IMG/VR virus record: IMGVR_UViG_3300045988_141143
Reading direction: 5' to 3' (one strand)
From: a virus
Length of the DNA: 64,000 bases
The notes beneath the pieces are model-generated. The model had not been told where the DNA came from, searched no databases, and worked only from the letters and a program-made list of their open reading frames with translations. Both the position numbers and the translations under genes were made by a program. This document shows positions 2,558 through 63,419 of the stretch, piece by piece; the stretch's first letter is position 1, and each line of letters begins with the position of its first letter.

Positions 2558-3001
2558 TTAAGACTCCAGCTCGCCGCCAGGTTTCTGACCGCCGCCTTCA
2601 GTGGTGGAGCCGCCGGGCTTCACGCCACCCGTGAGGTCGTTGCCGGCAAGGATGACCTTGAGGTCATCGGTGACGAGGGAGCGCATGTAGCTGTAGGGGT
2701 TGCCGATTTTGTGCTGCGCCTTGTAGGCCTTCATCACGGCGAGGTAAGCCTCCGTGCCCTTGGCCGACGTAGCCGACGGGCGGTTCTGCTTCCACCAAGA
2801 GGAGGCGAACTGCGATTTCTTCGTAAACGAAGATTTCACCGTCTGCTGTTTCTCACTGTTCGGCTGCACGCATCCGTGATAGCCAGCCGAATACATCTTA
2901 CCCGTGCGTTTGTTGACACCAATATAAGTAGTGTCCTTTTTGCACAGTTTGCCACTAATGGAACTAACCAAGTGGCTTGGAACAATCTTTGCCATACGCA
3001 A
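2558..3001 (-). CDS. Hypothetical protein with a Gly-rich C-terminal tail shared with the HU-like protein at 24288..24839
   Basis: C-terminus 'GGSTTEGGGQKPGGELES' versus 'GGGEQKPGGNPPEIES' of ORF 24288..24839. The overlapping plus-strand ORF 2399..3004 has antisense-like composition. Confidence 0.4.
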   Translation of the reverse strand: MRMAKIVPSHLVSSISGKLCKKDTTYIGVNKRTGKMYSAGYHGCVQPNSEKQQTVKSSFTKKSQFASSWWKQNRPSATSAKGTEAYLAVMKAYKAQHKIGNPYSYMRSLVTDDLKVILAGNDLTGGVKPGGSTTEGGGQKPGGELES

Positions 3002-3173
3002 TAAATTTTTCCGTGAAACATTGTCCCTAAAAAGGGGCGTTAATACACTCAGAGCAAGTCTACTGAAAGTCTACTGAAAGTTCACTGACGTTGCTCATAG
3101 TGTAAAGGTACGAAAAACGTGCGTGAAACATCGGACATAAAAAATAATTACTAACTAAAATAACAGATTTATT

Positions 3174-3758
3174 ATGAAGAAAATTTTCAGTTTTTTGCTC
3201 ATGTTAGCCATGATGCTTGCCATGGGCGCGAGTGTAGCGAGCTGTAGCAGTAGCAGTGACGATGAAGGTGGAGAAAAAAATCCTCCAGAAGAAGAGTATG
3301 TCGCAAAAGAAAGCAAGTTTTGCGATGCCTTGAGAAAATTCAAGGTATCAGGGTTTGACTACCATCAATACCAATATGTCAGTAAATTCTCGCTGCATAG
3401 CGAGGCTCGCAGTGGAATAGATGCCACCGACCGATGGGAGATTGGAATGTATATAGCAAACGACCCAGGTCTGGATAAGTGGGACGGCACATACCAGTTA
3501 GACCAACTTTGGGGTACGCTCTACGGCTTTGAAAATGGGTACGAGGTGACAAAGGCATATTTAGGTACGGAAGATACTCTCCCAGTGAAAGGAGCATGGA
3601 TAAAATTCACCTACTTGCACAAAAACGACAAATACGGCAACAAGATATACACCATAGAGCTGCATATCGACGAAATGAAGGAGAAAAACGGCGACTACGC
3701 ACGCGACATCAACATCACATATACTGGTTCGATTAGTGGCGGCATGATAGAATATTAA
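3174..3758 (+). CDS. Lipoprotein (signal peptide + lipobox)
   Basis: N-terminus 'MKKIFSFLLMLAMMLAMGASVASC' followed by a Ser/Asp/Glu-rich linker. Confidence 0.55.
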   Translation: MKKIFSFLLMLAMMLAMGASVASCSSSSDDEGGEKNPPEEEYVAKESKFCDALRKFKVSGFDYHQYQYVSKFSLHSEARSGIDATDRWEIGMYIANDPGLDKWDGTYQLDQLWGTLYGFENGYEVTKAYLGTEDTLPVKGAWIKFTYLHKNDKYGNKIYTIELHIDEMKEKNGDYARDINITYTGSISGGMIEY

Positions 3759-3994
3759 AGATATATGGGTGAAAGTTTGCATGTTTCGCAAACTTTGCTT
3801 ACCTTTGCAGTGCTATAATGTGACTCGAAGTTTCAAATAGAGAGTCATAATCTAAAATTAAAAGTATGGATCCCTGCTATTCGTGAGAATGGCAGGGATT
3901 GTTATATGTTTTTTCTTGAAACGACCAAATTTTTTCGTTTCCAATTATTTCCTAAGAAATAAAAGGAAATAAATGGAAACGAGTTCTGCCCCAA

Positions 3995-4276
3995 TCAACA
4001 GAGCACGACAATATGATTCATCTTCAAGATATAAGCAAAGATGAAATAGTTGATGATGCTTCCCAGGATGATGACGAGGGTGTATCGCACAATATCCTCC
4101 CACTCGAACTTTGCCAAATGATAGTGTTTGTATTGATATACCTCTCTACATATCATTACAGGCAAAGCAAGCGGACCTACAAATATACTGACAAACAGCC
4201 AACAGGCGAGACCGATGAGGTCGCGCTTGTTGAGGGTGATGAGGTTTCGGAGAAATGTCTTCATACGCAGAGCCAA
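3995..4276 (-). CDS. Small membrane protein
   Basis: Two hydrophobic helices. Overlaps the end of the upstream membrane-protein ORF and may be one gene split by a frame change. Confidence 0.3.
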   Translation of the reverse strand: MALRMKTFLRNLITLNKRDLIGLACWLFVSIFVGPLALPVMICREVYQYKHYHLAKFEWEDIVRYTLVIILGSIINYFIFAYILKMNHIVVLC

Positions 4277-6525: not shown

Positions 6526-9168
6526 TTAGTAATTATTGTTGCTCATTATTCCTACGTCAAGATTACCGAAAGTGGTTTCTGTCTGTATCGAATAGATTCT
6601 TCCATACCCTGCGAGTGTCATGTACTTAGCGCCGAAGGTGGCTATCTGTACATAGAAGGATGGCCTTGTCACGCTCTGCCCCTTCTTGATGGCAGGCACC
6701 AGCTTTGTGTTGTCGTAGGCCGTGGCATCCCCAGTAAGGAACACGCCATCCGCAAGATTTGTCAGCGCACCATTCTTCACCATTGTGCGGCTCGTAAAAG
6801 TCCTTCCGTCGGCTGCACTCGCAAGGTCGTAAGTACCCAATCCGTTTGCCGAGTCGGCTACTATCTTTCCGTTCACTCTTGGCGCTGAGTAACGATACAG
6901 GGTTGTCGTTTTGCCCGTCGCACCCTTAACGAAAAGAATGTAGTTGTTATCCTTCGTTGCCGTGTACCACGACTTGGTGGTATCAACCCACGGTAGGTCT
7001 ACATTCTCTCCGAGCGGAGTCGTCAGTCCTGCGTCCTCTGCTTTGATATATTGCGCAGAAGTTATCTTCGCGTCGGTCTTGCTTAGCGAGGCGATACCAG
7101 CAGGGCCGAGGTCATAGAGAAAGTTTCCGTTGTCGTCGTAGTACGACAGCACGGCCTGTCCCGAACTGTTCAGACCGAAGCGGATGTTTGCAGTTCCTGC
7201 CTTGCCGTAGATATTGATAAGGCCATCGGCTATCCTTACCATCTGTCCGTTGTGTCCTTGGGATGTAAGCATCTGCGCCAGTATCAGAGCCGCATTGATG
7301 GCTCCGTCTTTAAAGAGAGCGGCTGTCGTTGTCTGACCGGTAGAGAGCGTGTTCTCCACCTTGATTTTCTCGCCATACAGAGTTACTCCTCTCGACGTAA
7401 TCTCAAGTCCTGCCGCCTTTGCTGTGGCTCTGTCGATGAGGTCGGTCTTCCGTTCTGTATAATCAGTAAGTTGTGCGCCTTCCTCCAGTTTCGGCTTTGT
7501 CACCCAAGCCTCAGTATCGCCTGGAACACGTATCAGCACCTTGTCTGGGATTACCTCTGCTCCCTCGCCAGTATAGTCCTCTATTCGCCAATGCACCCAG
7601 TACCGCTTATAGGTCGAGGTGAGTGCGAGCTGTGCGTATCCGTCAGCCCAGCCGTCCGTATATTCGTTTCCTTCGCAGGTTTCTGTATATACATTTGCAT
7701 GAACGCTGTCTCCATAGAGAAAGACGTTGATGTTTCCGCTGCCCTTGGCAACGAAGGAGAACACATAGTCCTGATTCTTTACTATTCTCGCCTGCCCAGA
7801 AAGGGTAGCTGTTGTTGGAAATTTATATTGCAAGACTTCTGTGTACTGAGACTCTGCCGAGTTGTTTTTGTTGTACAATATACCGTAGCAGCCTTCGTAT
7901 TTTCCAAACATAATCAGTCCACTGGCAAGCTGGAGATTGCTTTTGTCAGACGATCTGGTCAGTGTCATCGTGTCCTCCATAAGGTTTCCTCCCACATAGT
8001 CGTAGTCCGTTTCCGCAGGAGTCCAGCCTGTGTACTCGCTTCCTTCTTCAAGCATTGGCATACATATCCATCCGTTGCCCGAGGCAGTATAACCAAAGGT
8101 TCCGTCCACGGTTATGCCATTGTAGACAAAGATATTCACCTCGATAAACTCTGCGTTGCTCGTATTGAAGGTGTAGTTCACCTGCCTCCACTGATTCACC
8201 TCGTTCTCCTTTGTCAGCCCGTACATGTTACCCGAGGTGGCAGTAATTCTGTCCCCTCTATCGCCATTCAGCGCAGCCATTTTGAACACCTCCGATATAA
8301 CCTGTAAGTCCTTCGTGTCGCACTTTATCCATGCCGAGAAAGTGTAGTCTGTATTCTTCTTCACAGCGATGCCGTTGACGGCCTGTCCCCAGAAAAGACC
8401 CTTGTACTGAGGCGTTCCGTTACCCGTCACCGAGAAGCGGATGGCATTATGGCCGTTTACGCCCTGTGTTATCGTAGGCTGGAAGATGCCGTTCATATAA
8501 TATATATCACCCTTCCTCGTCAGTGACGTATCTCGCAGTAGGTTATGCCGTCCTTGCTGGCTCTGAGTCACACTGAGAGTAATCTCCTTTGCTGTCTGCT
8601 TGATAGTAGATGTGTAGGCTTTGAGAACGGTAGGATTGCTTCCTTTGAGGTCGTTCTCCAATGCCTTAAATTGCGACTGATACTGCTTTGCCGTAGCCTT
8701 TACACTACCCATATACTTCGACACGTTCACCGAGAATGGAACTTGCGCAAAATAGAGAACACCAGTGTAAACAAATTGTGCGACCGCATAGCCTGATGTT
8801 GCAGAAACCTGTCCTTGATTTACCCCGTCAACAATTACATCGTTCTTTGCAATATTACTGCCTGATACAGATACTTCGATATATCCATCCTTCTGTGTTG
8901 CACTACATTTGCAATTTACACACAAATCATCCCTTGAGTTAATATTGCTGCATTCATTAGAGATATTCAGGTTACCCTTCATTATCTTTACCTTCGCAAC
9001 CTTTGATATGCTAACAGGTACAATTCCACTATCATCTGTGTCAAAAACGAGCGGAGCGTCTTCGACAATAATAGAAACGGCATCCTTGCCAGGCTTGCCT
9101 TGCGGGCCTGGCGCACCATCCTTTATCGCCGCTATCGTTATCTGGCCCCTCGCCAATAATACTGCCAT
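6526..9168 (-). CDS. Tail fibre / receptor-binding protein (880 aa)
   Basis: N-terminus 'MAVLLARGQITIAAIKDGAPGPQGKPGKDA' carries a collagen-like GxxGxxG segment and an anchor motif shared with ORF 9214..10257. Long Ser/Thr/Asn/Gly-rich beta-rich body. Confidence 0.6.
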   Translation of the reverse strand: MAVLLARGQITIAAIKDGAPGPQGKPGKDAVSIIVEDAPLVFDTDDSGIVPVSISKVAKVKIMKGNLNISNECSNINSRDDLCVNCKCSATQKDGYIEVSVSGSNIAKNDVIVDGVNQGQVSATSGYAVAQFVYTGVLYFAQVPFSVNVSKYMGSVKATAKQYQSQFKALENDLKGSNPTVLKAYTSTIKQTAKEITLSVTQSQQGRHNLLRDTSLTRKGDIYYMNGIFQPTITQGVNGHNAIRFSVTGNGTPQYKGLFWGQAVNGIAVKKNTDYTFSAWIKCDTKDLQVISEVFKMAALNGDRGDRITATSGNMYGLTKENEVNQWRQVNYTFNTSNAEFIEVNIFVYNGITVDGTFGYTASGNGWICMPMLEEGSEYTGWTPAETDYDYVGGNLMEDTMTLTRSSDKSNLQLASGLIMFGKYEGCYGILYNKNNSAESQYTEVLQYKFPTTATLSGQARIVKNQDYVFSFVAKGSGNINVFLYGDSVHANVYTETCEGNEYTDGWADGYAQLALTSTYKRYWVHWRIEDYTGEGAEVIPDKVLIRVPGDTEAWVTKPKLEEGAQLTDYTERKTDLIDRATAKAAGLEITSRGVTLYGEKIKVENTLSTGQTTTAALFKDGAINAALILAQMLTSQGHNGQMVRIADGLINIYGKAGTANIRFGLNSSGQAVLSYYDDNGNFLYDLGPAGIASLSKTDAKITSAQYIKAEDAGLTTPLGENVDLPWVDTTKSWYTATKDNNYILFVKGATGKTTTLYRYSAPRVNGKIVADSANGLGTYDLASAADGRTFTSRTMVKNGALTNLADGVFLTGDATAYDNTKLVPAIKKGQSVTRPSFYVQIATFGAKYMTLAGYGRIYSIQTETTFGNLDVGIMSNNNY

Positions 9169-13879: not shown

Positions 13880-14128
13880 CTAAGACATTTTCTTCTCTAC
13901 GATAGCTGTCACATCAGACACAAGCTGTAAGTCTTTTGCCTCTTCTGGCGAAATCTTGATATGGAACATGGTTTCGGTCTGAAGAACGAGGTCGAGAAAG
14001 TCAATAGACTCAAGAGCAAGATCATCACGCAGGTTAGCGCTGTCGGTCACTTCTGCTGTCGATGCCCAAGGTGTGCGCAGGCCTTCAACGATATTGAACA
14101 CCCGCTGACGTATATCTTCTTTGTTCAT
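13880..14128 (-). CDS. Acyl carrier protein
   Basis: 82 aa, acidic. 'DDLALESIDFLDLV' matches the phosphopantetheine-attachment region (DSL to ESI). Start overlaps the KAS stop (ATGA). Confidence 0.6.
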   Translation of the reverse strand: MNKEDIRQRVFNIVEGLRTPWASTAEVTDSANLRDDLALESIDFLDLVLQTETMFHIKISPEEAKDLQLVSDVTAIVEKKMS

Positions 14129-15339
14129 GATGGTTGATATTTAGAGATGATGAATGATGAGTTGGTGCCTCCGAAGCCAAAGGCATTGCAGAGGATATGG
14201 TGTGCTGAGTACTCGCGTGACTGCATGACGAGATTGAGTTTGGGAAAAGCATTCTCGGCTGTGGTAGCCGCACCGAAGACAGTGTCTGTGTTGAGCATCA
14301 TGGATGCTTGAACGGCCTGCGATACACCAGCCATCCAGCACTCGTGCCCCGTCATGCCCTTGGTGGCTACGATATAAGGGCTCTCGGGGAATACCTTTCC
14401 GATGGCTTCTGCCTCTGCAGCATCGCCCAGCTCTGTACCTGTGGCATGGGCAAGGAGTACATCTATCATTCCTGCATCGAGTCCTGCCGATTCTATGGCC
14501 TTAATCATTGCCACTTCTTCCTGATAAGCATCCGGGGTACAGATGTTGGTGCCGTTGGTGGAGAAGCCGCAGCCGGAAAGTTCTGCCACGGGCGAGACTT
14601 CATAATCCTCGAAACGCAAGCTGTCGGAAGGCTCAAGAATGACACAGGCTGCACCACCCGAAGGAGCAAGACCATTGCGGCCTTTGCCGAAGGGCTGCAC
14701 CTTGTCGGGCGAGAAAACGCCCATGGCATCAAACGACAGCATGGAGAAGGGACCTGTCTCCTGTGCGCCAACGACAATCACCATGTCGGTTTGGCGCGTA
14801 TCAAGAAGCATCTTGGCAAGACCGATGGCATGACCTCCTCCGGCACAAGCCCCGCTGACGGTAAGCGAAAGTCCTTTCAGTCCGTAGATAGAGGCGAGAC
14901 TCATGCTGACGGTGGAATTGAGTGTACGGAACACTGCGCCTGCCCCTAAACGTCGGGTGTCGCGCTGTGTAATGGCAGTTGTCATTGCCTGATAGTTGTC
15001 TCCAGCCGTAGTGTCGTTGCTGACGATGACCGATACATTGTGAGACTGCAAGAACTCGGGAAGAATATTGGCTTCCATCAGAGCCTCGTTGACGGCAGAT
15101 AAGGAATATAGGGTCGGTTCGGAAAGACATTGCCGTTGAGCCCTGGTGAGTTCGGATAGCTTCCAAGGGTTCGGGTCATTTATCTTTCCGCACAGGTCGG
15201 ACTGATAACCTTTCTCGCTACGTGCGGGGTCGTGGTGAAGACCGCACTCTCCATACGCCAGCTTCTGTGCGACGGAAAAGGTATCGTTGCCAAGACAGGA
15301 AACGATACCTGTGCCTGTGATTAATATTTTTCTATCCAT
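14125..15339 (-). CDS. Beta-ketoacyl-ACP synthase (KAS I/II, FabF/FabB-like)
   Basis: Active-site Cys in 'VSGACAGGGHAIG'. His motifs 'LAHATGTELGD' and 'KGMTGHECWMAG'. C-terminal 'FGFGGTNSSFII'. Confidence 0.75.
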   Translation of the reverse strand: MDRKILITGTGIVSCLGNDTFSVAQKLAYGECGLHHDPARSEKGYQSDLCGKINDPNPWKLSELTRAQRQCLSEPTLYSLSAVNEALMEANILPEFLQSHNVSVIVSNDTTAGDNYQAMTTAITQRDTRRLGAGAVFRTLNSTVSMSLASIYGLKGLSLTVSGACAGGGHAIGLAKMLLDTRQTDMVIVVGAQETGPFSMLSFDAMGVFSPDKVQPFGKGRNGLAPSGGAACVILEPSDSLRFEDYEVSPVAELSGCGFSTNGTNICTPDAYQEEVAMIKAIESAGLDAGMIDVLLAHATGTELGDAAEAEAIGKVFPESPYIVATKGMTGHECWMAGVSQAVQASMMLNTDTVFGAATTAENAFPKLNLVMQSREYSAHHILCNAFGFGGTNSSFIISKYQPS

Positions 15340-51193: not shown

Positions 51194-52044
51194 ATGTTAA
51201 ACGAACAACTGCAGAAAAAGGTAAAACAGTCGATAAAACTCCTGCAGAGTGTGCAGAAGCGATACGACGGCGAGATAGAGATAGCCTACTCGGGCGGTAA
51301 GGACTCCGACGTGATCCTTCAGCTGGCGAAAGAGGCAGGCATCAAGTATCGGGCCATATACAAGAATACGACCATCGACCCGCCAGGCACGTTGGGGCAC
51401 GTCAGAGAAATGGGAGTGGAGATACTGCGGGCCAAGACATCCTTCTTTCATCTCGTGGCACAGAAAGGATTTCCATCTCGCTTTACTCGTTTCTGTTGTG
51501 AAGAACTGAAGGAATACAAGGTGCTCAACAAAAGTATTATCGGCGTGCGCAAGGCTGAGAGCCGGAAACGAAACGAAAGATACAACGAGCCGACAGAGTG
51601 CCGATACTTCGGAAAGAAGAAAGAGGAAAATCACGTAGAACAGATTTATCCTATTCTGGAATGGACCGATGAGGACGTGCGTGACTTCATCATAGACAGA
51701 AAGTTGAAACTCGCACCCATTTATTACAATTCGGGGGGCAAATCGACGTGTCGAAACGTCTTGGCTGTATGTGCTGTCCTCTTGCCTCAAGGCGCAAGCG
51801 CATTATCGAGTTTCAGAAATATCCCAAGATAGCAAAGGCTTATCTCCGTGCGGGGCAACGATTTATGGAAACGCATCCTGACAGCAAGGCGTGCCAGAGG
51901 TACGACAATGTTTACGAATGGTTCGTTCGCGACGTATTTTACAGCTCCAATGCAGATTGGAGCAAGGTAAGCACAGGGCTGTTCGGTAAGCCGGACTTCA
52001 AGAAATTCTTGGAGGACAAGTTCGGTATTGACTTGACATTATAA
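51194..52044 (+). CDS. PAPS-reductase-family (PP-loop) protein split by a 1-nt frameshift in a G6 tract
   Basis: 'IAYSGGKDSDVIL' PP-loop, 'RFCCEELK', 'IIGVRKAESRKRNE'. Conserved C-terminal 'RLGCMCCPL' continues in frame +2 after GGGGGG at 51733-51738. Reported ORFs 51194..51832 and 51748..52044. Confidence 0.55.
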
Positions 52045-52724: not shown

Positions 52725-53333
52725 ATGAATAACAACATAAAAAGAAAGGACTGGGTAGGCGGCTCGGCTGCTGTATTCAAGACGTTGGGCGCGAGCAACC
52801 ATACGAATGCGGATAGACAGCGTGAGGATTACTATGCCACTGAGCCGAAGGCTACGGAATGGCTGTGCAAGCTGGAGAGGTTTGAGGGCAGGATTCTTGA
52901 GCCTTCGTGTGGCGAGGGCCACATGAGTAGAGTATTGGAGGCAGCAGGGTATGAGGTGGTGAGCCGCGATCTTGTGGATAGAGGGTACGGCGAAGTTGCC
53001 GACTTTCTCTCTATTGACAATATGGAGTGGGATGGCAATATCGTGACTAATCCACCCTACAAATACGCACAGGAATTTGTGGAGAAGGCTCTAAGCATCA
53101 TTCCCGAAGGAAAGAAGGTGGCGATGTTTCTAAAGCTGACTTTCCTCGAAGGCAAGGGTCGACGCGCTCTCTTCCGTTCTACTCCCCCCATTCGTGTTTG
53201 GGTAAGTTCATCACGACTGAAATGCGCCATGAATGGCGACTTCGAGGCTTACGGCAGCAGCGCCGCGGCTTACGCATGGTTCGTGTGGGAGAAAGGATAT
53301 AAAGGCGAGACAACTGTAAAATGGTTTAACTGA
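52725..53333 (+). CDS. Small N6-adenine DNA methyltransferase (phage Dam-like)
   Basis: AdoMet motif 'ILEPSCGEGHM' followed by 'IVTNPPYKYAQEF' (NPPY). Confidence 0.6.
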   Translation: MNNNIKRKDWVGGSAAVFKTLGASNHTNADRQREDYYATEPKATEWLCKLERFEGRILEPSCGEGHMSRVLEAAGYEVVSRDLVDRGYGEVADFLSIDNMEWDGNIVTNPPYKYAQEFVEKALSIIPEGKKVAMFLKLTFLEGKGRRALFRSTPPIRVWVSSSRLKCAMNGDFEAYGSSAAAYAWFVWEKGYKGETTVKWFN

Positions 53334-53372
53334 CGGAAAATAGAACAACTAACAACAACACAAAAACAACAC

Positions 53373-53603
53373 ATGAGTAACAACCGACACAAATACTTCA
53401 ACAAGGTACCGCCGTTCAAGCCGGACCCTGAACACTACACTCGCAAGCAACACTCTTGGAAAGCGAAGGAGGCCTACGAGACGGAAGATGATGCTTGGGA
53501 ATATCTCAATCAGAACCCGAAGCTGCGGGCGCAGGGCATGACGGCGTACCGATGCAGGACGTGCAACAAATGGCACATAGGACATAAGACGCACAGCGAA
53601 TAA
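53373..53603 (+). CDS. Small zinc-ribbon protein
   Basis: 'YRCRTCNKWHIGH', 76 aa, directly upstream of TerL. Confidence 0.4.
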   Translation: MSNNRHKYFNKVPPFKPDPEHYTRKQHSWKAKEAYETEDDAWEYLNQNPKLRAQGMTAYRCRTCNKWHIGHKTHSE

Positions 53604-53632
53604 GCTACACAACACAAAATCAGGATAACACA

Positions 53633-55627
53633 ATGCAGCAAGCACACAACATATACTTAACCAAATTCCAGCAGCAGTCACTATACATGGGAGCCAAGGA
53701 TGAGCGAGTGATTGCTGCCCGCCGTGTGGGTAAGACCGACGGACTTGTGGCTCCTTACGTCTGGACGGCAAGCAACTCCATGCCTGGTATGCTCGGCGCA
53801 TGGGTGGCTGTGTCACGTCAGCAGGGCTTCGGCAAGACCATACCGAGTACGATGGCGGCCATGGAACGTATGTTCGGATTTACGCAGGGCATTCACTTCG
53901 GTTGGGGTCGCCCACCGAAGCACGCTCGCGAGAGTATCTTCAAGCCTAAGAACTACGACAACTACATTTGGTTGGCCAATGGTGCGGGATGGGTTCTTAT
54001 CTCCCTCTCGCAGACCGCCTCTGCCAACTCCTACACGTTCTCTGCGATGGTGGGCGACGAGGCGAGATTCTTTCCCTATAAGAAAGTGACCGACGAGCTG
54101 ATGCCGGCGCTTTCAGGACAGACGCACCCCTTGGGCGACATCAACTTCTCTGACCACAACCCGATGTATAAAAGTACGCGCTTTCTCTCGGATGCCTCGC
54201 TCACAGCCAAAGGTTCGTGGTTGGAGAAGGAGGAGGAGAAGTTGGATATGACGGTGGAGACGGGTCCATTCAAGGGCAAGACCTACCGATGGGTACAGGA
54301 GCAGCTGGAGGATTATGCCGACAAGGTGATACGCTACAACGACCTGTTGTATAACGCCAAGAAGACCGGTCACGGGGTGCATGTGGTGCCGAAGGAACTG
54401 CGCACGATGATACGCGCCGTGGCGCTGAAGATGATGAAACATGAGGGGCAGTTCCGCATCATGCCCAACCATGGCCAACACGTCACGAAGGGCATGGTGG
54501 AGATGGCTGTCAACTACAAACTCATTCCGCAGGAGGATGCCGAACTGATTTACGATTACGAATACCTTATCACGCCGGAAGAGGATTTCGAGATGCAGAT
54601 GTTTCTGCGGTCGAAGAAATTCTCTGAAAACTATCTGCGTGAGCTGCGCCGTGTGGCTTTCTGCGTGCGCCGTGCGTCATCGCTCGACAATGTGGATATT
54701 CTGGGTGAAGACTATATTCGCCAGATGAAACGAGATTTGCCTCCGATGACCTTCGCTATTTCAATCCTCAACATCAAAGTAAAGAAGTCAAACGACGGAT
54801 TTTACTCCAACCTCGACATCGATCATGTTCACGGATATATCCCCGACGAGATAGACCCCTTATCGTCTGCCAAATTTTCCACGCAAAAGGTATCGGGCAT
54901 CATCGGTGGCAAGAAAGTCACGAGCGAGAGTTATCAGCCCGACTTCAAGGAGTTGGGCGAGCGCAACGACTCGCGCCAGGACTCCGACTGCATCAACTCC
55001 CTTCCTTTATATATAGCCCTCGATTACAATGCCAATATCAATACGTTGGTGGTCGGGCAGATGTACGAGCGCGACGGCATGGAATGTCTGAACGTCATCA
55101 AGAGTTTCTATGTAAAGAACGAGCGCAAGTTGCGTGAAGTGATAGCCGATTTTTCCGACTATTACGCACCGAAGCGAGCCATCAACCGTGACGTGACGTA
55201 TTTCTATGATGCTACGGCAAAGCAGGGAGCATCCTATGCTTCGTCGGACGAGCGATTCTATATGACCGTGATTGCTGAATTGGAGAAGCACGGCTGGAAC
55301 GTGACGGCCATTGATATGGGCGCACCAGAGAAGCACGAGGTGAAGCACAAGATTATCAACGACGGACTGGCTCACCTCTCCTACCCTGCCATCCGCATTA
55401 ACCAGGTGAACAATCCCGACCTTATCATCGCCATGCAGCTGTGTGAGGTGCAGATTTCGTACAAGGGATTCCACAAAGACAAGAGTCAGGAGAAGAAGCC
55501 CGAAAGCGAGGACACGCTGCCCCTGCAGCAACGTACCGACTTCACGGATGCCTTCGATACGCTGTACTTAGGTTGCAAGTTCTTCCGTGTCGGTGGCGGT
55601 TGGTTTGTGCTGCCGAGTGGAAGATAG
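53633..55627 (+). CDS. terL: Terminase large subunit
   Basis: Walker A 'AARRVGKTDG'. Walker B 'AMVGDEARF'. C-terminal nuclease-like acidic residues. 664 aa. Confidence 0.7.
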   Translation: MQQAHNIYLTKFQQQSLYMGAKDERVIAARRVGKTDGLVAPYVWTASNSMPGMLGAWVAVSRQQGFGKTIPSTMAAMERMFGFTQGIHFGWGRPPKHARESIFKPKNYDNYIWLANGAGWVLISLSQTASANSYTFSAMVGDEARFFPYKKVTDELMPALSGQTHPLGDINFSDHNPMYKSTRFLSDASLTAKGSWLEKEEEKLDMTVETGPFKGKTYRWVQEQLEDYADKVIRYNDLLYNAKKTGHGVHVVPKELRTMIRAVALKMMKHEGQFRIMPNHGQHVTKGMVEMAVNYKLIPQEDAELIYDYEYLITPEEDFEMQMFLRSKKFSENYLRELRRVAFCVRRASSLDNVDILGEDYIRQMKRDLPPMTFAISILNIKVKKSNDGFYSNLDIDHVHGYIPDEIDPLSSAKFSTQKVSGIIGGKKVTSESYQPDFKELGERNDSRQDSDCINSLPLYIALDYNANINTLVVGQMYERDGMECLNVIKSFYVKNERKLREVIADFSDYYAPKRAINRDVTYFYDATAKQGASYASSDERFYMTVIAELEKHGWNVTAIDMGAPEKHEVKHKIINDGLAHLSYPAIRINQVNNPDLIIAMQLCEVQISYKGFHKDKSQEKKPESEDTLPLQQRTDFTDAFDTLYLGCKFFRVGGGWFVLPSGR

Positions 55628-55663
55628 GGGATTTTTTGAGTTTTGATATTAGAATAGAAAGGC

Positions 55664-55701
55664 GAAGGGCAGACGTTATCACAACGGCTGCCCTTCTTTT
55701 T
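55664..55701. terminator. Bidirectional rho-independent terminator between convergent terL and the minus-strand block
   Basis: 9-bp stem gaagggcag/ctgcccttc with a 15-nt loop, followed by ttttt. A T-run sits on the opposite side as well. Confidence 0.6.
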
Positions 55702-55750
55702 GTAAAATAATGAATAAATGTGCAATCTTTTGATATGATATGATTAGATA

Positions 55751-56395
55751 TTACTTATTTCTTTGTTTACCATGACGATATTTGTGCGTCTTAAAAAGAG
55801 GACGAGTAAGTCTTGCGGAGACTGAGTAATAAGACGGAGTATTGAATACCTCTGCTTTAAATCTTACCGTATAGCCCACCTTCTTTATATAACCGTTGAT
55901 GTGCTTCACATCCTCCATCGTGAGGGTAGCCATTTTGTATGTCTCCCGTAGACGCAAAGACGCATGCCTGCCAATAAGATTACAGAAACCCATCGAATAG
56001 TCACTATATGGTATCGACAAAGTATCGTCTGCCACATAGAGAGTATCAATGTTATTCGACTCGTGTACCAAAAAAGCGTAACACATGACCGTCTTCCCTT
56101 TCTCACAGGGACTTTTCAAAATGGCAATAATATACGTCCCAGGATGTTCGGAATCTAAAAACTTGTAATATATGCCGTTAGCAGCATCATAACGGTCGCG
56201 ATCTCCGAGGGCAGCACTCCCCATACTAAACTCTATATGCTTGTTCCTCTCAACACCACTGCCCTTTGCGGACAACTGACTTATGCGCTGTTCCAGCTCT
56301 TTAATGCTCTTAGCGTGCTCGTCGAGCGTATCTATTACAGACCCCATATTGTCCATCAATGCCTGCAATAGTTTTTCTTTTAATTGTTTACACAT
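55751..56395 (-). CDS. Hypothetical phage protein (214 aa)
   Basis: Intact ORF. Confidence 0.4.
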   Translation of the reverse strand: MCKQLKEKLLQALMDNMGSVIDTLDEHAKSIKELEQRISQLSAKGSGVERNKHIEFSMGSAALGDRDRYDAANGIYYKFLDSEHPGTYIIAILKSPCEKGKTVMCYAFLVHESNNIDTLYVADDTLSIPYSDYSMGFCNLIGRHASLRLRETYKMATLTMEDVKHINGYIKKVGYTVRFKAEVFNTPSYYSVSARLTRPLFKTHKYRHGKQRNK

Positions 56396-56470
56396 GTCTT
56401 TTATGTTTAAAATTCACTCTTTTTCTTCCTTCAGCATTACAAATTGCTTTGTGGGTGGGGATGGTTATCA

Positions 56471-57142
56471 TTACAAGAACACTGGCAGTCTGCGCCACAC
56501 GCCTCCGTTCGGCTGAAACTCCTCATGCCATTCCCGATATTCCACTTCAAACTTTGCACCATAATAAGCCAAACCTTTGAGAGGTAGGCTCTTGATATAT
56601 TTCTCCTGCTCCTCACGAGTCATAAAGTCGTTAGGCATGAGAATGATGCGATTGCTACGGACATGAATAAAGAACTCTATCGCAAAATTACTATTCGTCA
56701 GCATTCTCTTAATCGCGTCATAGTCCCACTTGCCTTTAGGCGAAAAGTTTATGCCATCCACATAAGGGTAAAAACGTTCGGGAAAGTTGTTTATATCCAC
56801 GTTGGCAAACATCCATCTACCAGAAGTGTAGATATAGAGCTGCTTGATGTTAGGATAATCATGGCGCAGGTGTGAGCATATATCTATGATACCAGTCACA
56901 TAGAATGGGTCTCCACCAGTAAGCATAACAGTATGTGCTGCCTTCAACTCCTCTACAGTTGCCACAGGCACCGTATCGAGGTCGTACTGCTTGTTGCAGT
57001 ACACGGGACAGGAGTTAGTACATGTACGGTTAATAATCAAGTGTATGGCTTCCTTATCGGAGCCCGGCTCGTCAGCATATTTACGTTTTGTTTCCATTAA
57101 CTTTTTCATATCTATATGTATTAGTTTTATTACTTCTAACAA
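56471..57142 (-). CDS. Radical-SAM-like 4Fe-4S protein of the NrdG/QueE activase type (atypical CxxxCxxxC)
   Basis: 'LIINRTCTNSCPVYCNKQ' versus the NrdG 'SGCVHECPGCYNKST' block. 'VMLTGGDPF' versus the 'SLSGGDPL' SAM-binding block. Confidence 0.45.
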   Translation of the reverse strand: MLEVIKLIHIDMKKLMETKRKYADEPGSDKEAIHLIINRTCTNSCPVYCNKQYDLDTVPVATVEELKAAHTVMLTGGDPFYVTGIIDICSHLRHDYPNIKQLYIYTSGRWMFANVDINNFPERFYPYVDGINFSPKGKWDYDAIKRMLTNSNFAIEFFIHVRSNRIILMPNDFMTREEQEKYIKSLPLKGLAYYGAKFEVEYREWHEEFQPNGGVWRRLPVFL

Positions 57143-57259
57143 TATATAAGGCTTTTGCCCTTACAGGGCGCATTACCAATTGCCATTACACCCAGTGCGA
57201 TGCCCTGGGCTAAGAGCTTCTGCCCCCTTCAGGGCGTGCTGATTATATGACCTTTGCCT

Positions 57260-58291
57260 TCAGGGTGTGGTGACTCTGGAGCTGCCCGATGGGTTGTCAG
57301 ATACTTCTTGGCTCTTCTGCTGTTCCTTTACCGCACTGGACGCAGGCTTCTCATAAATATCGAACTTGCGTGTGGTTGGACACCAACTGATTCCGGCGGC
57401 GTGCAGCGCATTGTCTATTGTGATTTCAGTCGCAAGATCGGCTGGAATGATAGACAGAGGAACGCCACCTTGATAGAGGTGGTCGAGATAGATACACGGT
57501 CCAAAGTATATGCCGTTATTAAAACCAATAAAGGTCATGCTGTAATCTAAACCCCTAATGTCTTTGTTTTTCTTTACCATGGAATGCAGGTGGATGGTTC
57601 TGCTCTCCACATCGTAGCAGTTGAAGATAGCTGCATAAGAAGCCAGTCCGCAGCCAGGCCTTGCGTAGGTAAGCTCTACGTACTGACCAGTCTTGAATGC
57701 CGGAAGGAGCTTATAACCTTTACGACTGGAGAAAAGACGACCCGTAAACTTTTCTATTTTACGGTAAAGCTCTCGGGTGTCTTCTTCGTTGAGCTTGCTG
57801 TAGCTATTGACGGAAATCTTACACTTTTCGCCATCCGAGGTCTTGGGGCATTCCTCTATACTCTGAATTTCTGAATATCTGTCCTCAAATACTTCCACCA
57901 GCGGAGTAAAGGTGTTATAATCATCATTGTTTACCTTATCGACAATAAAGAATGGGCCGTCGTATTCGTAAGGACGTCTCACTACCGTGCCCTTGCGCCA
58001 TGTAAGCACGTCCCATTTCGCTTTACTTGGATTGGGATGTATCACGCAGTCGGAACCTAAAAGGTCTGAGATTTCGATGTTTCCTACCTTGAGTTTCAGA
58101 CAGCCCTCCTTATTGAACGTAAGGTAGGCGGTCTTTGGGTCGGCTTTTTTATCGGCGATGGCACAGAAAATCTCGTCATCCGTCACGTCTATCAACGTCA
58201 TCCAACCGCACAGGTCGCACCACACTTGCATTCCTACCCTGCCGTATTGAAACAGAACCTCCTTCACGTTCTCTAAATTTCTCTGGCTCAT
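57260..58291 (-). CDS. Hypothetical phage protein (343 aa)
   Basis: Start taken at the internal ATG at 58291 (MSQRNLENV). Confidence 0.4.
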   Translation of the reverse strand: MSQRNLENVKEVLFQYGRVGMQVWCDLCGWMTLIDVTDDEIFCAIADKKADPKTAYLTFNKEGCLKLKVGNIEISDLLGSDCVIHPNPSKAKWDVLTWRKGTVVRRPYEYDGPFFIVDKVNNDDYNTFTPLVEVFEDRYSEIQSIEECPKTSDGEKCKISVNSYSKLNEEDTRELYRKIEKFTGRLFSSRKGYKLLPAFKTGQYVELTYARPGCGLASYAAIFNCYDVESRTIHLHSMVKKNKDIRGLDYSMTFIGFNNGIYFGPCIYLDHLYQGGVPLSIIPADLATEITIDNALHAAGISWCPTTRKFDIYEKPASSAVKEQQKSQEVSDNPSGSSRVTTP

Positions 58292-58409
58292 AATATATAC
58301 ATTTAATAAATTGATTAAACATGCTGTTCTCTTTACTGGTCGCTGTCCGAACATCAACGCCAATCCACGAGCCGCTACATGGCGTTCATCTCATCCCACT
58401 TCTTCTTCA

Positions 58410-59048
58410 TCACTCATCGGCGGGAAAGCTGATCTTTGCATCTGCCAGTCTTTTCTTGCAGATCACACCAAGGCCTTCAATGACACCCAAACATGAGCTA
58501 CAATCCAAACAGTAAGCATAGCCAATCATGGCGCTAACGGTATTGTATGGGCATTTCTCCCCCTTTATCGCATAAAGGTGTTTGTCCTCCATAAAGGCGT
58601 GGATTTCTTTTTTTAACCCATTCAGTATTTTGTTCTCTCTTTCCAGCTCGTCGCAATGGTCGCGCATCTGCTGCATCTCAACAAGCGACTGCCTTGACTC
58701 GCGCTCCTCCTTACTGCCCAACTGGTGAGCGACATCGTTGTAATCATCCGTGAGCTTATGCACAAGCTGCTCAAGTTCTCCGTTCTTTCTTTCCAGCTCA
58801 TCACAATGGTCGCGCATCTTCATCATCTCGCCAAGCGTCTGCTTGGAAGAGTTTTCATCCTTGCGTGCCTCCAGTCCATGCTGTTGGCGCACGGCATCGT
58901 TGTAATCGTCCATGAGCTGATGCACACGTTGCGTCATCTCAATGTTCTCTGCCTTCAAGTCGGCTACGATATAGGAAAGAGCCAACATACGTTTGTTTTC
59001 TTCTGTTGTCATTGTTTCTTGGGTTTTATGTTTGTTATTCATATTCAT
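58410..59048 (-). CDS. Coiled-coil protein with ~49-aa tandem repeat and C-terminal Cys-rich zinc-finger-like tail
   Basis: 'QLMDDYNDAVRQQHG...MRDHCDELERKNGELEQL' repeated as 'KLTDDYNDVAHQLG...MRDHCDELERENKIL'. C-terminus 'CPYNTVSAMIGYAYCLDCSSC'. Confidence 0.4.
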   Translation of the reverse strand: MNMNNKHKTQETMTTEENKRMLALSYIVADLKAENIEMTQRVHQLMDDYNDAVRQQHGLEARKDENSSKQTLGEMMKMRDHCDELERKNGELEQLVHKLTDDYNDVAHQLGSKEERESRQSLVEMQQMRDHCDELERENKILNGLKKEIHAFMEDKHLYAIKGEKCPYNTVSAMIGYAYCLDCSSCLGVIEGLGVICKKRLADAKISFPADE

Positions 59049-59206
59049 ATACTATATGCGATGTGGTATTGCCCAGTCCGTCGCGAGGGTCGGTAATACC
59101 TATCCCGACCATTGTCGTCACGGCATTGGCTATCTGCTTGCGCGGTCGACTCTTTACGAGGCCCTTGCCGTCCTTGCCGCTGCGTACCCAACCGATGTAA
59201 TACTTG

Positions 59207-60019
59207 TCAATCATCGGTCTGTGGTATGGTCAGATACATTCGTTCATTAGCCTTGCACGACTCCCCTTGCATTCTACCTGCCTCTAACCCTGCTTTCTTT
59301 AGAGCTTCGTCACGCTCATGCTCCAGTTTTATGCAATATTCAGTCAGGCGATTATATTCTTTCTGCAAGGCGTTGAAATCCTCGCGCAGTTGCTCGGGAG
59401 TGTGAGTTTCTGAATCTAATGGCACAAGACGCTGCTTTCTCTTGTCCCATATTTTCCCGATTCTCTCCACGGCATTGTTGAGAAGTTTTTCTTCCGTAGG
59501 CGTGGCGTATCTCAGTTCGATGCTTACTTCTTCTGCGCATGTACCGAGAAGATCAAGATGGACGTTAGGAGTAAGTTCGTCGCTGTTTTTGCACAAGCAG
59601 GCGTATGTTCTTATCTTGGGATAAGAATCTATAAAATCCACTTCATTGAAAATCACAATGTAGGTCAGGATGTTGCCATCTTTATTTTTAATATCCATTG
59701 CCACGATGTCGCCGGGCTGGAAGTTGAGCACATTCCAATGCCGGTAAAGATGCGAGAGAAACAGCATACACTCTCCTTTTTCAAAGTTCGCTAAACGCCC
59801 ATTGCAACGAAAAAGAATGTAGTGTGCTTCATCCTCGTCAGGAATGGAGGGACCCACCAAAATACCCGAAGCGTTTGTTTCTTTCACATTCAGATAGCCA
59901 AACAAAGGTGAGTAAAGCGTGTCACCTTCAGTCAAGCCGTAGAGGAAGGCTGCCATTTTTTCAATCTCGAATAATTTAGCTTTTATCTCAGGGATGCTTC
60001 TTGTTGCTTTTTGTTTCAT
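59207..60019 (-). CDS. Hypothetical phage protein (270 aa)
   Basis: Intact ORF preceded by the conserved ~40-nt upstream element. Confidence 0.4.
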   Translation of the reverse strand: MKQKATRSIPEIKAKLFEIEKMAAFLYGLTEGDTLYSPLFGYLNVKETNASGILVGPSIPDEDEAHYILFRCNGRLANFEKGECMLFLSHLYRHWNVLNFQPGDIVAMDIKNKDGNILTYIVIFNEVDFIDSYPKIRTYACLCKNSDELTPNVHLDLLGTCAEEVSIELRYATPTEEKLLNNAVERIGKIWDKRKQRLVPLDSETHTPEQLREDFNALQKEYNRLTEYCIKLEHERDEALKKAGLEAGRMQGESCKANERMYLTIPQTDD

Positions 60020-60060
60020 AATGTCTCTATTTTAAATTATCACTCATATTCTATCTTGTG
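60017..60060. promoter_or_regulatory. Conserved ~40-nt upstream/junction element (copy 1)
   Basis: Minus-strand 'aagatagaatatgagtgataatttaaaatagagacattATG' versus copy 2 'ttgatagaatatgagtaacaatttaaaatagagaattATG'. Confidence 0.5.
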
Positions 60061-60072
60061 ATGTTATTCATA

Positions 60073-60363
60073 TTACCCTTTTTCTACTAATTCCCAGGTC
60101 TTTTCATCGTGAGAGGAATAGACGGTATAGGTAAGTTCACAACAGTTCTTGGCTGTCCTCACTTCATGCAACATTTCTCTCGTATAGAAGCAACGCTCCA
60201 TAAGGTACGCCAATGCCTTAAACTGGTCTTGAGTAAGAAAGACCTCCTGCTCGCCGCAAGTGATACCAACATTATCAGTAATGGTAGAATAGAAGAGCTT
60301 TACGTCCTCTTCCTTCCCTGTGTCCTCGTTCTTTACGATTATCTTTTCTGTATTGAAACTCAT
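60073..60363 (-). CDS. Hypothetical protein (96 aa)
   Basis: Intact ORF. Confidence 0.35.
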   Translation of the reverse strand: MSFNTEKIIVKNEDTGKEEDVKLFYSTITDNVGITCGEQEVFLTQDQFKALAYLMERCFYTREMLHEVRTAKNCCELTYTVYSSHDEKTWELVEKG

Positions 60364-60503
60364 AATTTATTTCTCCTTTTATAATTCAACAAACACGCAA
60401 ATTCCACCACTTGCAGCGATCAGTGCGTTTACAAGCTTACTCCCATCCTCGCCATTCGAGCCGATGGCTAACGGGATGCACGGAAATGTAGATGTGGGTC
60501 ATG

Positions 60504-60965
60504 TTACTCTTGAAGATACTCGCCGTATAGTTTCCACTCCTTATCATGGATGTTGCCGACAACCTCAAAGCTCTTCATCTTCTCTTGCAAGAGATCATCT
60601 GGGATGCCGTCTTCAAGACCACCTACGTCAGAGTAGGGATTTTTTACCGTAACGATACCAAAGCAAGCTTTCTTCTCACAATAATACACTACGGCATAGT
60701 AGTCGTCGCAAGTATTGTATTCGATTCTGCTATACGGATATTCGTTCGATCGCAATACGTCGCCTTCATAAATCTCCTTGCCGTTCTTGTCGGTGAAGCC
60801 AGTGAACTGGCATACAGTAGAGGGGTCAACAGCAAACGTAAAAACAGGCCGTCCATCACTGACTGGATTATTTTTTACGAGAGTCTGGTCACCCACATGG
60901 GACAAATCGCCGTAATTCCACTTCCCGTCCTCTATACTCTTAGCCTTAAACTTAATTGTTCTCAT
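60504..60965 (-). CDS. YopX-family phage protein
   Basis: 'MRTIKFKAKSIEDGKW', 'GFTDKNGKEIYEGDVL', 'EVVGNIHDKEW' match the YopX consensus blocks. Confidence 0.65.
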   Translation of the reverse strand: MRTIKFKAKSIEDGKWNYGDLSHVGDQTLVKNNPVSDGRPVFTFAVDPSTVCQFTGFTDKNGKEIYEGDVLRSNEYPYSRIEYNTCDDYYAVVYYCEKKACFGIVTVKNPYSDVGGLEDGIPDDLLQEKMKSFEVVGNIHDKEWKLYGEYLQE

Positions 60966-62103: not shown

Positions 62104-63306
62104 TCAGTTCTCATTCTTCCTCTCCATATTCTCCTTGAACATTTCTCCGAAACCATCCCAATAATGAGCGTCCATCCATTCGGGCGAGGATAAAAACTGC
62201 TCATACATCATTGTCGCAGGTATCGTCCGTAGGTATTTCTCGCAAGCCTTAACGTCTTTGTCCCACAAATCCATCCGCTCCATTTCTATCTGAAAATACG
62301 TCTTGAGGAACATTGCCGCCTCATGTGTCGGTGGCAGGTCGAATTGAAGGAATAAGGCATTGTCGGAGTCGTTTGCCTTGAGGAACTTGCTCACGGCATC
62401 GTCCTTGAGGAAATAGCGGTCAGACACTTCCTCTTCGAGCACGTCTTCCAATCGGGTAAGCAGCTCGAAAGGTTCTGGGAACTGATAGTCGAATGCCACG
62501 TCTCGGCGCATGGAGAGGCAGAACACACGGTCGCGGTTTTGTGGCACACCGTAGTTCTTGGCGTTGAGTCGCGTCCAACGGCTCACATAGCCGAGCGACG
62601 AGAGTTTGTCGAGCCACTTCTGAAAGTCTGGCAAGAACTTCTGGCTTACCAGTGCCGCCACGTTCTCCTGCAAGAGATACTTCGGGCGAAGCACCTCCAC
62701 AGCATCCGCCACACGCCAAAGCAGTGCGCTTCGGGTGTCGCTGCCCTCCTGCAAGCCCATTTGCTTGCCCGCCTGACTGATGTCCTGGCAAGGCGAGGAA
62801 TAGGTGAAGAGGTCTACTTCGCGGCCTTCGAGCGAGCTTTCCACCTCGTGCCAGTCAATCTTGGTGATGTCGCCCAGGGCGCAGTCGGCAAACTGAGGGA
62901 AGACGAGGTTGTGCATCTGACAGGCGTATTTGTCGATGTCGCTCCATCCTATACATGTCCATCGGAAGTCGGGATGCCACTCGCGGAGCACATCGGCTGC
63001 CATAAGCTGCGAGTCGTAGCCGAAGAACGTGGTAAGGAATATCTTCTCCTCGTTCTTGTTGGCTGCGGTGGGCGGCAGGGCGGGTAATGTGTCTTCGAGG
63101 TCGTCGAAGAGCGAGAGTTGCTTTTGCTTACGAGGTTTGGGCGTAGGATAGAAAAGTTGCTCGTAGATGTGGGCCAACACGTCCACCACGATGCTGTTTC
63201 CGGCTTGCTTGTACTGCTGTGAGGCAGATATAGCCATGTCTTCGGGCTTGCCCTTGCCTTTCCAGTCGGGCAGACGTTCGGCTGCTTGAGCATTGCTGCT
63301 CTGCAT
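62104..63306 (-). CDS. C5-cytosine DNA methyltransferase core with non-canonical (circularly permuted) motif order
   Basis: Motif X 'QYKQAGNSIVVDVL' lies near the N-terminus. Then 'GWSDIDKYACQMHNLVFPQ...GDITKI' (II/III), 'SSPCQDIS' (IV), 'LLQENV' (VI), 'QNRDRVF' (VIII) and a TRD-start-like 'LEDVLEEEVSDRYFLKDDAVSKFLK'. Motif I is not clearly recognisable. The ORF table lists 62104..63348 from a GTG. Confidence 0.55.
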   Translation of the reverse strand: MQSSNAQAAERLPDWKGKGKPEDMAISASQQYKQAGNSIVVDVLAHIYEQLFYPTPKPRKQKQLSLFDDLEDTLPALPPTAANKNEEKIFLTTFFGYDSQLMAADVLREWHPDFRWTCIGWSDIDKYACQMHNLVFPQFADCALGDITKIDWHEVESSLEGREVDLFTYSSPCQDISQAGKQMGLQEGSDTRSALLWRVADAVEVLRPKYLLQENVAALVSQKFLPDFQKWLDKLSSLGYVSRWTRLNAKNYGVPQNRDRVFCLSMRRDVAFDYQFPEPFELLTRLEDVLEEEVSDRYFLKDDAVSKFLKANDSDNALFLQFDLPPTHEAAMFLKTYFQIEMERMDLWDKDVKACEKYLRTIPATMMYEQFLSSPEWMDAHYWDGFGEMFKENMERKNEN

Positions 63307-63314
63307 CGTGCCGA

Positions 63315-63419
63315 TTACATTGTCACGAACGCCATCAGACGAAAACACTCCTTGGGTGTGAGCTTGCGGATGGCATAGCTCTTGATGGTGCGGTCGGTGA
63401 AATTGAGTTTTGTAATCAT
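63315..63419 (-). CDS. 34-aa mini-ORF carrying a C5-MTase motif-IX-like peptide, out of frame with the MTase core
   Basis: 'MITKLNFTDRTIKSYAIRKLTPKECFRLMAFVTM*'. 'RKLTPKECFRLM(G)F' is the motif-IX consensus. The core continues in the +1 frame a few nt downstream. Confidence 0.4.
   Translation of the reverse strand: MITKLNFTDRTIKSYAIRKLTPKECFRLMAFVTM

Follow-up and report, generated by a model that had tools for sequence, protein, structure and literature searches.

The open reading frame (ORF) at 56471-57142 on the minus strand of the window, a 64,000-nucleotide stretch of the virus record IMGVR_UViG_3300045988_141143, encodes an ordinary member of an already catalogued, uncharacterised phage radical-SAM family. 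Based on profile matching, we assign the protein to PHROG 31524, a group of minimal radical-SAM-fold proteins. Its Cx3Cx3C cluster motif is a private one-base mutation, Cys37Tyr, and not a new metal-binding motif. We hold the family identity and this reading of the mutation with high confidence. When a nucleotide-type substrate is added to them, our confidence in the blended whole is evenly balanced.

Gene, fold, and family

The ORF is a real and conserved gene. Counted from the TTG at 57142 (minus strand), the start of the longest ORF, it comprises 223 codons. Since the starts of the homologues align with the ATG at 57109 (MKKLMETKRKY...) or four codons downstream, the protein is most likely 212 aa, encoded by 56471..57109 (minus strand) with the stop codon at 56471-56473. 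The strings INRTCTNSCPVYCNKQ, CTNSCPVYC, VMLTGGDPF, and TGGDPF are all present in the translation of the ORF. The cysteine and VMLTGGDPF strings quoted in the original prediction were, thus, placed correctly, and the gene that carries them is conserved in 102 homologous clusters (E≤1e-3, set of 5.8 billion proteins). An exhaustive HMM search retrieved 883 representative clusters at E≤1e-3. The dN/dS of the gene was 0.2-0.3, indicating purifying selection.

The window protein alone did not reach any curated HMM threshold. It scored 12.6 bits against PF04055 (E=0.15), below the gathering cut-off of 29.5, and 13.8 bits against the NrdG model TIGR02491 (E=0.041), the cut-off of which is 126.1; the NrdG profile phrog_626 gave E=0.0098. 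The only significant profile match was to phrog_31524 (E=2.2e-5; database label "unknown function"), with residues 33-208 aligned to profile positions 5-172 of 190. However, PF04055 matched 61 of 93 distant full-length family members (best E-value, 1.1e-9), and Fer4_12 (PF13353) matched 52 of the 93 at E≤0.01. The Fer4_12 and Radical_SAM profiles, which had been proposed as a check of the assignment, therefore fell short for the single protein and succeeded for its distant relatives. An AlphaFold2 model built from 39 homologues (pLDDT 89, pTM 0.86) displayed a predicted partial (beta/alpha) TIM-barrel of the radical-SAM type, and Foldseek comparisons with the PDB and with viral models were consistent with this fold. 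Because the window protein lies below the PF04055 threshold, its homology rests on the transitive matches and the fold; judged from both, we regard the radical-SAM homology as secure.

Two further motifs were located using the alignments. T64-G-G-D-P-F69 (56903..56920, minus strand) is the putative 'GGE'-type SAM-binding motif after beta-2, as indicated by the family alignments and hhalign. TGGDPF is invariant or near-invariant in family alignments A1-A4 and was matched by hhalign to the GGEP motif of MoaA, NrdG, and QueE. The second, P200-N-G-G-V-W-R-R-L-P-V-F-L212 (56474..56512, minus strand), is a family-specific C-terminal motif in which R206 and R207 are invariant. NrdG has no counterpart of this motif.

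The family members are about 178-212 aa and share the hallmark HLxVTxxC-x3-C-x2-C-C-N, TGG[ED]P, YxYTSG, DGIxxxPK, and SNR, followed by a C-terminal FxPxxxxxRR. To date, they have been found only in phage genomes and gut or rumen metagenome contigs. Among 185,579 species genomes, the family occurred only on gut or rumen MAG contigs (Prevotella, Bacteroidales, and Bacilli), many of which are about 90-130 kb and, thus, phage-sized. A tblastn search of GenBank phages identified full-length relatives at about 27% identity: Bacteroides phage crAss001 Gp56 (YP_009910796.1, 180 aa), some 25 PhiCrAssBcn isolates, Kehishuvirus, IAS virus, LoVEphage, and Phocaeicola phage PV4-TP1 gp63. PHROG 31524 matched crAss001 Gp56 at 1e-18 and the homologues P0104 and P0107 at 2e-10 and 5.6e-9, respectively. 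The N-terminal fusions of the longer homologues are short extensions to which no annotation could be given, and some are zinc-ribbon-like.

crAss001 Gp56 and its relatives in LoVEphage, PV4-TP1 (gp63), and IAS virus share Cx3Cx2CCN, TGGEP, the C-terminal RR, and their size with the window family. Similar to the window gene, they stand alone amid early or DNA-metabolism genes of Bacteroidales phages. Unlike crAss001 Gp56, the window copy carries Tyr instead of the third Cys, and its N-terminus is extended by 18 residues, as is typical of the clade of the window. Moreover, the window phage does not belong to the crassviruses: a giant tape-measure-like gene is present, and its TerL is only 31% identical to that of any GenBank phage. 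We found nothing relevant in the literature on the function of crAss001 gp56 or on anti-defence by phage radical-SAM proteins.

The Cys37Tyr change and loss of cluster cysteines

The cluster motif of the window protein, C30-T-N-S-C34-P-V-Y37-C38 (56996..57022, minus strand), corresponds to the family consensus C-x3-C-x2-C-C-N. Its spacing, C30-x3-C34-x3-C38, exceeds the canonical one by one residue between the second and third Cys. The window copy departs from the consensus through one G>A change (TGC>TAC, Cys37Tyr), which affects the canonical third ligand: the codon at 56999..57001 (minus strand) is TAC for Tyr37, where the 93%-identical homologue P0001 has TGC. The two genes differ by 15 non-synonymous codons, including Cys37Tyr, and 17 synonymous codons, and a rough estimate from these counts gave an omega of ~0.26. 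C-x3-C-x2-C-C-N was present in 76 of the 102 close clusters and in nearly all distant representatives. In the 93-member distant alignment, the three canonical Cys were invariant and the fourth was at least 90% conserved. In contrast, C-x3-C-x2-Y-C occurred in the window protein alone among sequences in the searched collections. A degenerate DNA pattern for C-P-x-Y-C-N-K-Q-Y-D did not reveal a second C37Y instance in IMG/VR or the JGI metagenome contigs.

The apparent Cx3Cx3C arises because Cys37 became Tyr while the conserved extra Cys38 remained beside it. Since C37Y is private and the family spacing is canonical, we interpret Cx3Cx3C as a point mutation without the status of a family trait. 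The TAC at 57000, the G>A position, may also stem from a sequencing error. The atypical motif in the original prediction is, therefore, real with respect to the extra residue of this copy, but does not extend to the family, which has canonical Cx3Cx2C(C).

Cluster motifs with other spacings are found elsewhere, such as Cx2Cx4C in ThiC, Cx5Cx2C in HmdB, and Cx14Cx2C in B. multivorans QueE. Since these proteins ligate the SAM-binding cluster, Cx3Cx3C is possible in principle. However, the odd spacing of ThiC, HmdB, and B. multivorans QueE is a conserved family trait, whereas the window copy is a singleton in a canonical family. An aromatic position usually directly precedes the third cluster ligand in radical-SAM motifs. 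In the window copy, the adjacent conserved Cys38 may act as the third ligand, with Tyr37 in the aromatic position before it. Alternatively, the loss of Cys37 may impair activity.

The C30/C34/C37 triad was missing in 20 of 69 full-length clusters covering the window clade and outgroups. Residues 30, 34, 37, and 38 were R-C-C-C in 5 clusters, R-F-C-C in 10, R-R-C-C in 4, C-N-P-C in 1, and C-C-Y-C in 1, which is the window protein; the fourth Cys alone was lost (C-C-C-Y) in 3 further clusters. By parsimony on a tree built with the motif masked, about 6 changes were required, with at least 3 clearly separate lineages. The triad-broken variants are full length and located on 80-100 kb contigs, and their clusters comprise as many as 194 sequences. 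They retain all 40 hallmark positions checked, and TGG[DE]PF was present in 20 of 20. Their dN/dS was 0.28-0.50, compared with about 0.20 for intact pairs. P0245 is a distant Cys-less member, and L031 and P0067 are frameshifted copies. In the lineage with Arg at residue 30, a variable-segment haplotype carries an extra Cys94 or Cys98-x3-Cys102 just after the putative SAM-contacting beta-3 'YTSG'. This haplotype was also found with an intact triad (P0030, P0036, and P0052), which weakens the case for compensation by Cys98/Cys102.

These variants raise the question of whether the clade consists of pseudoenzymes, in which the fold would bind SAM, a host protein, or a nucleic acid, acting for instance as a decoy or an inhibitor, and Cys loss would be tolerated. 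Between three and six inferred losses in abundant, full-length variants that keep their hallmarks and remain constrained are in line with this explanation, as are the distant Cys-less P0245 and the tandem paralogues and accessory recombining block described below. However, the invariance of the canonical Cys in the 93 distant representatives indicates that the ancestral function needs the cluster. Furthermore, the dN/dS of Cys-less variants exceeds that of intact pairs and frameshifted copies occur, so that slow decay also fits. If the cluster is required for SAM binding, one would not expect the SAM motif to have been kept. We consider a clade of pseudoenzymes to be unlikely. The triad-broken lineages may reflect slow decay, a cluster-independent role, or rewired ligation. 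Since 20 of 69 clusters lack the triad and yet are conserved, radical chemistry may be dispensable in this clade. That the radical-SAM fold is changing its cofactor ligation or function there is conceivable, although we give it a rather low probability.

Relation to characterised radical-SAM enzymes

We compared the family with curated radical-SAM families, none of which fitted it among the NCBIfam models applied to the 93 distant members. HxsC models matched 80 of these members, MoaA 61, and NrdG/NrdG2 27-28; all of the matches were far under the cut-off and confined to the N-terminal ~90 residues. In hhalign comparisons, the family aligned best with E. coli MoaA (97%, 1e-10, 108 columns), followed by NrdG (94.6%, 6.5e-8, 72 columns), QueE (63%, 7.1e-5, 16 columns), and PflA (33%, 4.5e-4, 70 columns) of E. 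coli. Similarly, E. coli MoaA matched dozens of family genes at about 1e-6 by tblastn, whereas E. coli NrdG, PflA, and QueE gave nothing below 0.01 against the family genes. The nearest solved structures by sequence profile were MoaA, viperin-like enzymes, QueE, and AbmM, and the MoaA/viperin-type PDB HMM matches included 1TV7 (6.7e-6) and 9DFN (1.6e-5).

The family shares the beta-1 'hLxVT..C', GGEP, TTNG-like 'YTSG', and 'GI.VS' beta-4 with the MoaA and viperin cores. However, MoaA is 329 aa and the window protein 212 aa, and the alignment covers a generic N-terminal core and stops at beta-4. The window protein lacks the C-terminal half, auxiliary cluster, and nucleotide-binding residues of MoaA and viperin, and a family member reached 25.9 bits against MoaA TIGR02666, the cut-off of which is 284. 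The beta-1 HLxVTxxC of the MoaA/SPASM type and the ranking of MoaA first mean that the description 'NrdG/QueE-like' is only generically true: the alignment with NrdG and QueE that had been reported reflects the generic radical-SAM core, but MoaA aligns better and the NrdG and QueE cut-offs were missed.

The protein may instead be an activase of a host glycyl-radical enzyme, namely, the class III RNR NrdD or pyruvate formate-lyase, that increases dNTP supply or fermentation during infection. This would be an NrdG-like job performed by a protein that is not an NrdG orthologue. NrdG and PflA (COG0602) share with the family a small size, GG[DE]P, an anaerobic setting, and C-x3-C-x2-C-x-N with its following Asn, the activase pattern of PROSITE PS01087. 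The weak NrdG matches (TIGR02491 and phrog_626 for the window protein, 27 of the 93 members, and the hhalign result) point in the same direction. One member was named 'organic radical activating enzyme' by JGI, every source was an anaerobic gut or rumen sample, and the orphan status of the gene demands a partner supplied by the host.

However, the similarity with NrdG/PflA spans 72 columns, and where activases have an N-terminal G-x-G-x-R...F-x-x-G element, the family has the MoaA/SPASM-like HLxVT. The best TIGR02491 E-value among the 93 members, 1.3e-6, was still short of the cut-off. NrdG membership itself was rejected because the scores were about a tenth of the curated cut-off and the profile-profile ranking favoured MoaA over both NrdG and PflA. 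Moreover, the conserved C-terminal extension is missing from NrdG, and crAss001 has its own RNR of the class I/II type (PF02867) and no glycyl-radical enzyme was found in it. We doubt that the family activates a host enzyme, and assign this role a low probability.

GenBank labels crAss001 Gp56 as a 'His-Xaa-Ser system radical SAM maturase HxsC-like protein'. The best family member reached 31 bits against HxsC TIGR03977, for which the cut-off is 267.9, over model positions 28-117 of 292. Genuine HxsC carries an additional cluster at C342/C345 and requires HxsA, HxsB, and HxsD (PMC13128918). The HxsC label was rejected because the family protein is too short for a second cluster and HxsA, HxsB, and HxsD partners are not encoded. 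HXS systems are 99.7% Pseudomonadota (PMC13128918), and this near-confinement makes a link with HXS unfit for Bacteroidales phages. The idea of an anti-HXS decoy, derived from the 'HxsC-like' label, was ruled out for the same reason.

The same restriction argues against the broader proposal of a protein or peptide maturase, an EpeE- or HxsC-like epimerase or crosslinker acting on a virion or early protein of the phage or the host. In addition, these proteins of only 180-212 aa have no SPASM/twitch domain or RiPP-recognition element, a neighbouring peptide or protein gene conserved across the clades was not found, and there is no crAss_PVA homologue beside the window gene. A maturase is, therefore, improbable.

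Partner genes, genomic context, and proposed substrate

The gene is a true stand-alone gene. E. coli NrdD, QueC, QueD, FolE, Tgt, and QueE gave no tblastn match below 0.01, either in the window or in the related loci, which number about 120 and total 1.08 Mb. As the original prediction had stated, NrdD, QueC, QueD, and FolE were absent from the window. Scans against Pfam or PHROGs detected no RNR or glycyl-radical enzyme among the window ORFs of at least 570 aa, excepting an ORF of 1983 aa that is tape-measure-like based on PhageMin_Tail matches of its homologues in relatives.

The remainder of the genome, ~36 kb outside the window, was rebuilt from the relative IMGVR_UViG_3300045988_151591 (100,631 bp), with the search covering all but 780 bp (99,852-100,631). 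This relative is 91-98% identical to the window in DNA sequence over the aligned blocks and 99% identical in the two proteins tested, and the window corresponds to about 26.5-90.3 kb of it. Its ~36 kb encodes a ParA-like ATPase, a weak Rep-like protein, a pol III beta clamp, an exonuclease, an NAD-dependent ligase, an LPD29 protein, and a 1226-aa protein with a weak DUF5906 match. tblastn and Pfam identified no NrdD or 7-deazaguanine genes in this region, and the proposed look at the rest of the genome for nrdD, queCDE, folE, and dpdA was likewise negative in the ~36 kb of the relative. Since only replication and partition genes were found there, we dismissed the possibility that a partner is encoded outside the window. 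The annotation of crAss001, read outside 50-60.9 kb (RNA-polymerase genes), also contained no NrdD or 7-deazaguanine genes, and a tblastn search of crAss001 for NrdD was likewise negative. A QueE role in a phage 7-deazaguanine DNA-modification pathway, the modified-base option raised initially, is effectively refuted, since the window protein has no QueE model match, only 3 of the 93 members have one, the hhalign alignment spans a mere 16 columns, and QueC, QueD, FolE, and Tgt/DpdA were not found in the window, the related loci, the remainder of the near-identical genome, or crAss001.

The co-directional downstream gene (55751..56395, minus strand; 214 aa) has no family match. Its synteny does not reach beyond the closest relatives, so that it does not qualify as a conserved partner. 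The co-directional upstream gene (57260..58363, minus strand; 367 aa) also has no family match and is syntenic only within the clade. The 150-nt leader preceding the gene contains three CCCTG(N)AAGG repeats (57159..57265, minus strand), which are absent elsewhere in the window and kept in the closest relatives. The leader had no Rfam match to a riboswitch or known RNA, and its folding energy was not unusual (z = -0.86). In the window clade, the gene is second to last in a long run of co-directional genes that are small, of early type (YopX and HNH), and for the most part without annotation; the run points toward a TerL of opposite orientation, and a PAPS-reductase-like gene and DNA methyltransferases are located within a few kb. 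The gene block is 91% identical to IMGVR_UViG_3300045988_151591 and its flanks are 97-98% identical, which indicates an exchangeable accessory region. Some phages carry tandem paralogues (two copies), and one close relative has a frameshifted copy.

In crAss001, the gene order is phosphoribosyltransferase, zinc ribbon, portal-vertex auxiliary protein, Gp56, HicA-like, and ThyX. Gp56 lies within a replication/nucleotide-metabolism module with PNK, DNA polymerase, dUTPase, and RNR upstream. The gene is located between GyrA and an NAD-dependent ligase in three distant phages, and adjoins DNA methyltransferases or RecT/exonuclease genes in others. A recurrent upstream neighbour was taken by eye for ThyX; this was rejected because it has neither BLAST similarity to crAss001 ThyX nor a Pfam match, and it corresponds to phrog_6721 (database label, unknown function). 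All-against-all ORF clustering of 90 loci revealed no neighbour family common to all three clades. Therefore, guilt by association is weak.

Family members would use a bound [4Fe-4S] cluster and SAM to produce a 5'-deoxyadenosyl radical. Since no phage-encoded partner is conserved, the substrate would be one that every host or phage supplies. By analogy with radical-SAM structures in general, the very small partial barrel suggests a macromolecular substrate or an active site completed by dimerization. We tentatively propose that the substrate is a nucleotide or nucleic acid during phage DNA metabolism, and rate this as possible, at less than an even chance, because of the profile affinities with MoaA, viperin, QueE, and AbmM, the location among DNA-metabolism genes, and a set of conserved basic residues (K125, R154, R192, R206, and R207).

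The window copy, as a singleton Cys>Tyr variant, adds little alone, and it cautions that an oddity in the motif of a single sequence is not a new motif. The labels NrdG, QueE, and HxsC do not suit this family, and 'HxsC-like' in GenBank is a mis-annotation. Phages of the human gut and the rumen, the model crassvirus crAss001 among them, commonly carry this family, and its members are among the smallest radical-SAM-fold proteins. Since B. intestinalis and crAss001, a cultured and genetically approachable pair, carry a member, the function is testable. The clade-wide loss of Cys under retained constraint represents a natural experiment on the need for the cluster. If the ligands of the clade have been rewired or the protein has become a cluster-free binder or inhibitor of a host target, these phages would provide a natural series in which a radical-SAM enzyme was re-ligated or turned into a pseudoenzyme.

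Leader and sequence exchange at the radical-SAM locus

The 150-nt leader 5' of the radical-SAM gene carries three copies of the repeat CCCTG(N)AAGG (57159-57265, minus strand), which occurs nowhere else in the 64-kb window. These repeats are kept in the closest relatives (phage loci L001, L002, L012, L013, L016, L017, and L089). In L001 and L002, a perfect hairpin (CCCAGGGC...GCCCTGGG) lies between the repeats, and the leader of the window has the same hairpin with a mismatch in one arm (GCACTGGG). A search of the repeat-bearing leader against Rfam did not yield a match, and its folding energy was not out of the ordinary.

The block from TerL to the early genes that includes the radical-SAM gene (53347-60965) was 91-95% identical between the window and a near-identical IMG/VR genome (L247, IMGVR_UViG_3300045988_151591), whereas the flanks of this block were 97-98% identical. 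Between these genomes, the radical-SAM proteins shared only 83% identity. These comparisons are evidence of mosaic exchange at the locus.

Members of the radical-SAM family in other phages

The product of crAss001 gp56 (6989-7531 of its locus, L133) is annotated in GenBank as "His-Xaa-Ser system radical SAM maturase HxsC-like protein". The "HxsC-like" name of Gp56 and its relatives is based on a sub-threshold N-terminal match and is probably misleading. Two phage contigs of approximately 110 kb (L048 and L049) encode tandem paralogues of the family at 1484-2119 and 2995-3612, separated by approximately 900 bp. The copy in the related phage locus L031 is frameshifted, and the C-terminal half of the protein cluster P0067 can no longer be aligned to the family.

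Neighboring genes

The window encodes a PAPS-reductase-like protein (51194-51832, plus strand; PF01507, 6.3e-12) of 212 aa, whereas its counterparts in relatives are 229-283 aa long. The terminase/radical-SAM region is flanked by two DNA methyltransferases (52725-53333, plus strand; 62104-63348, minus strand). In the Phocaeicola phage PV4-TP1, a PAPS-reductase gene lies 5 kb from the radical-SAM-family member. The phage L005 encodes a distant member of this family, and its surroundings fit an accessory or counter-defence neighborhood because a Tad2-like (anti-Thoeris) gene (L005, 7586-7903) and a Dam-type methyltransferase are present 2-3 kb upstream.

Beta-ketoacyl synthase and possible plasmid-like persistence

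A 404-aa ORF (14125-15339, minus strand) showed strong matches to the N-terminal (7.7e-26) and C-terminal (5.8e-20) domains of beta-ketoacyl synthase. Phages do not usually encode condensing enzymes of the KS type, and the neighbors of this ORF are large, CBM-containing phage genes that are structural in appearance.

The part of the L247 genome beyond the window encodes a ParA/MinD-type ATPase (918-1790; AAA_31, 1.4e-34) and, close to it, a protein that matches Rep3_N weakly (2613-4172), with a pol III beta clamp alongside. This gene combination suggests that the phage, of approximately 100 kb, may persist as a plasmid-like episome, namely, as a phage-plasmid.
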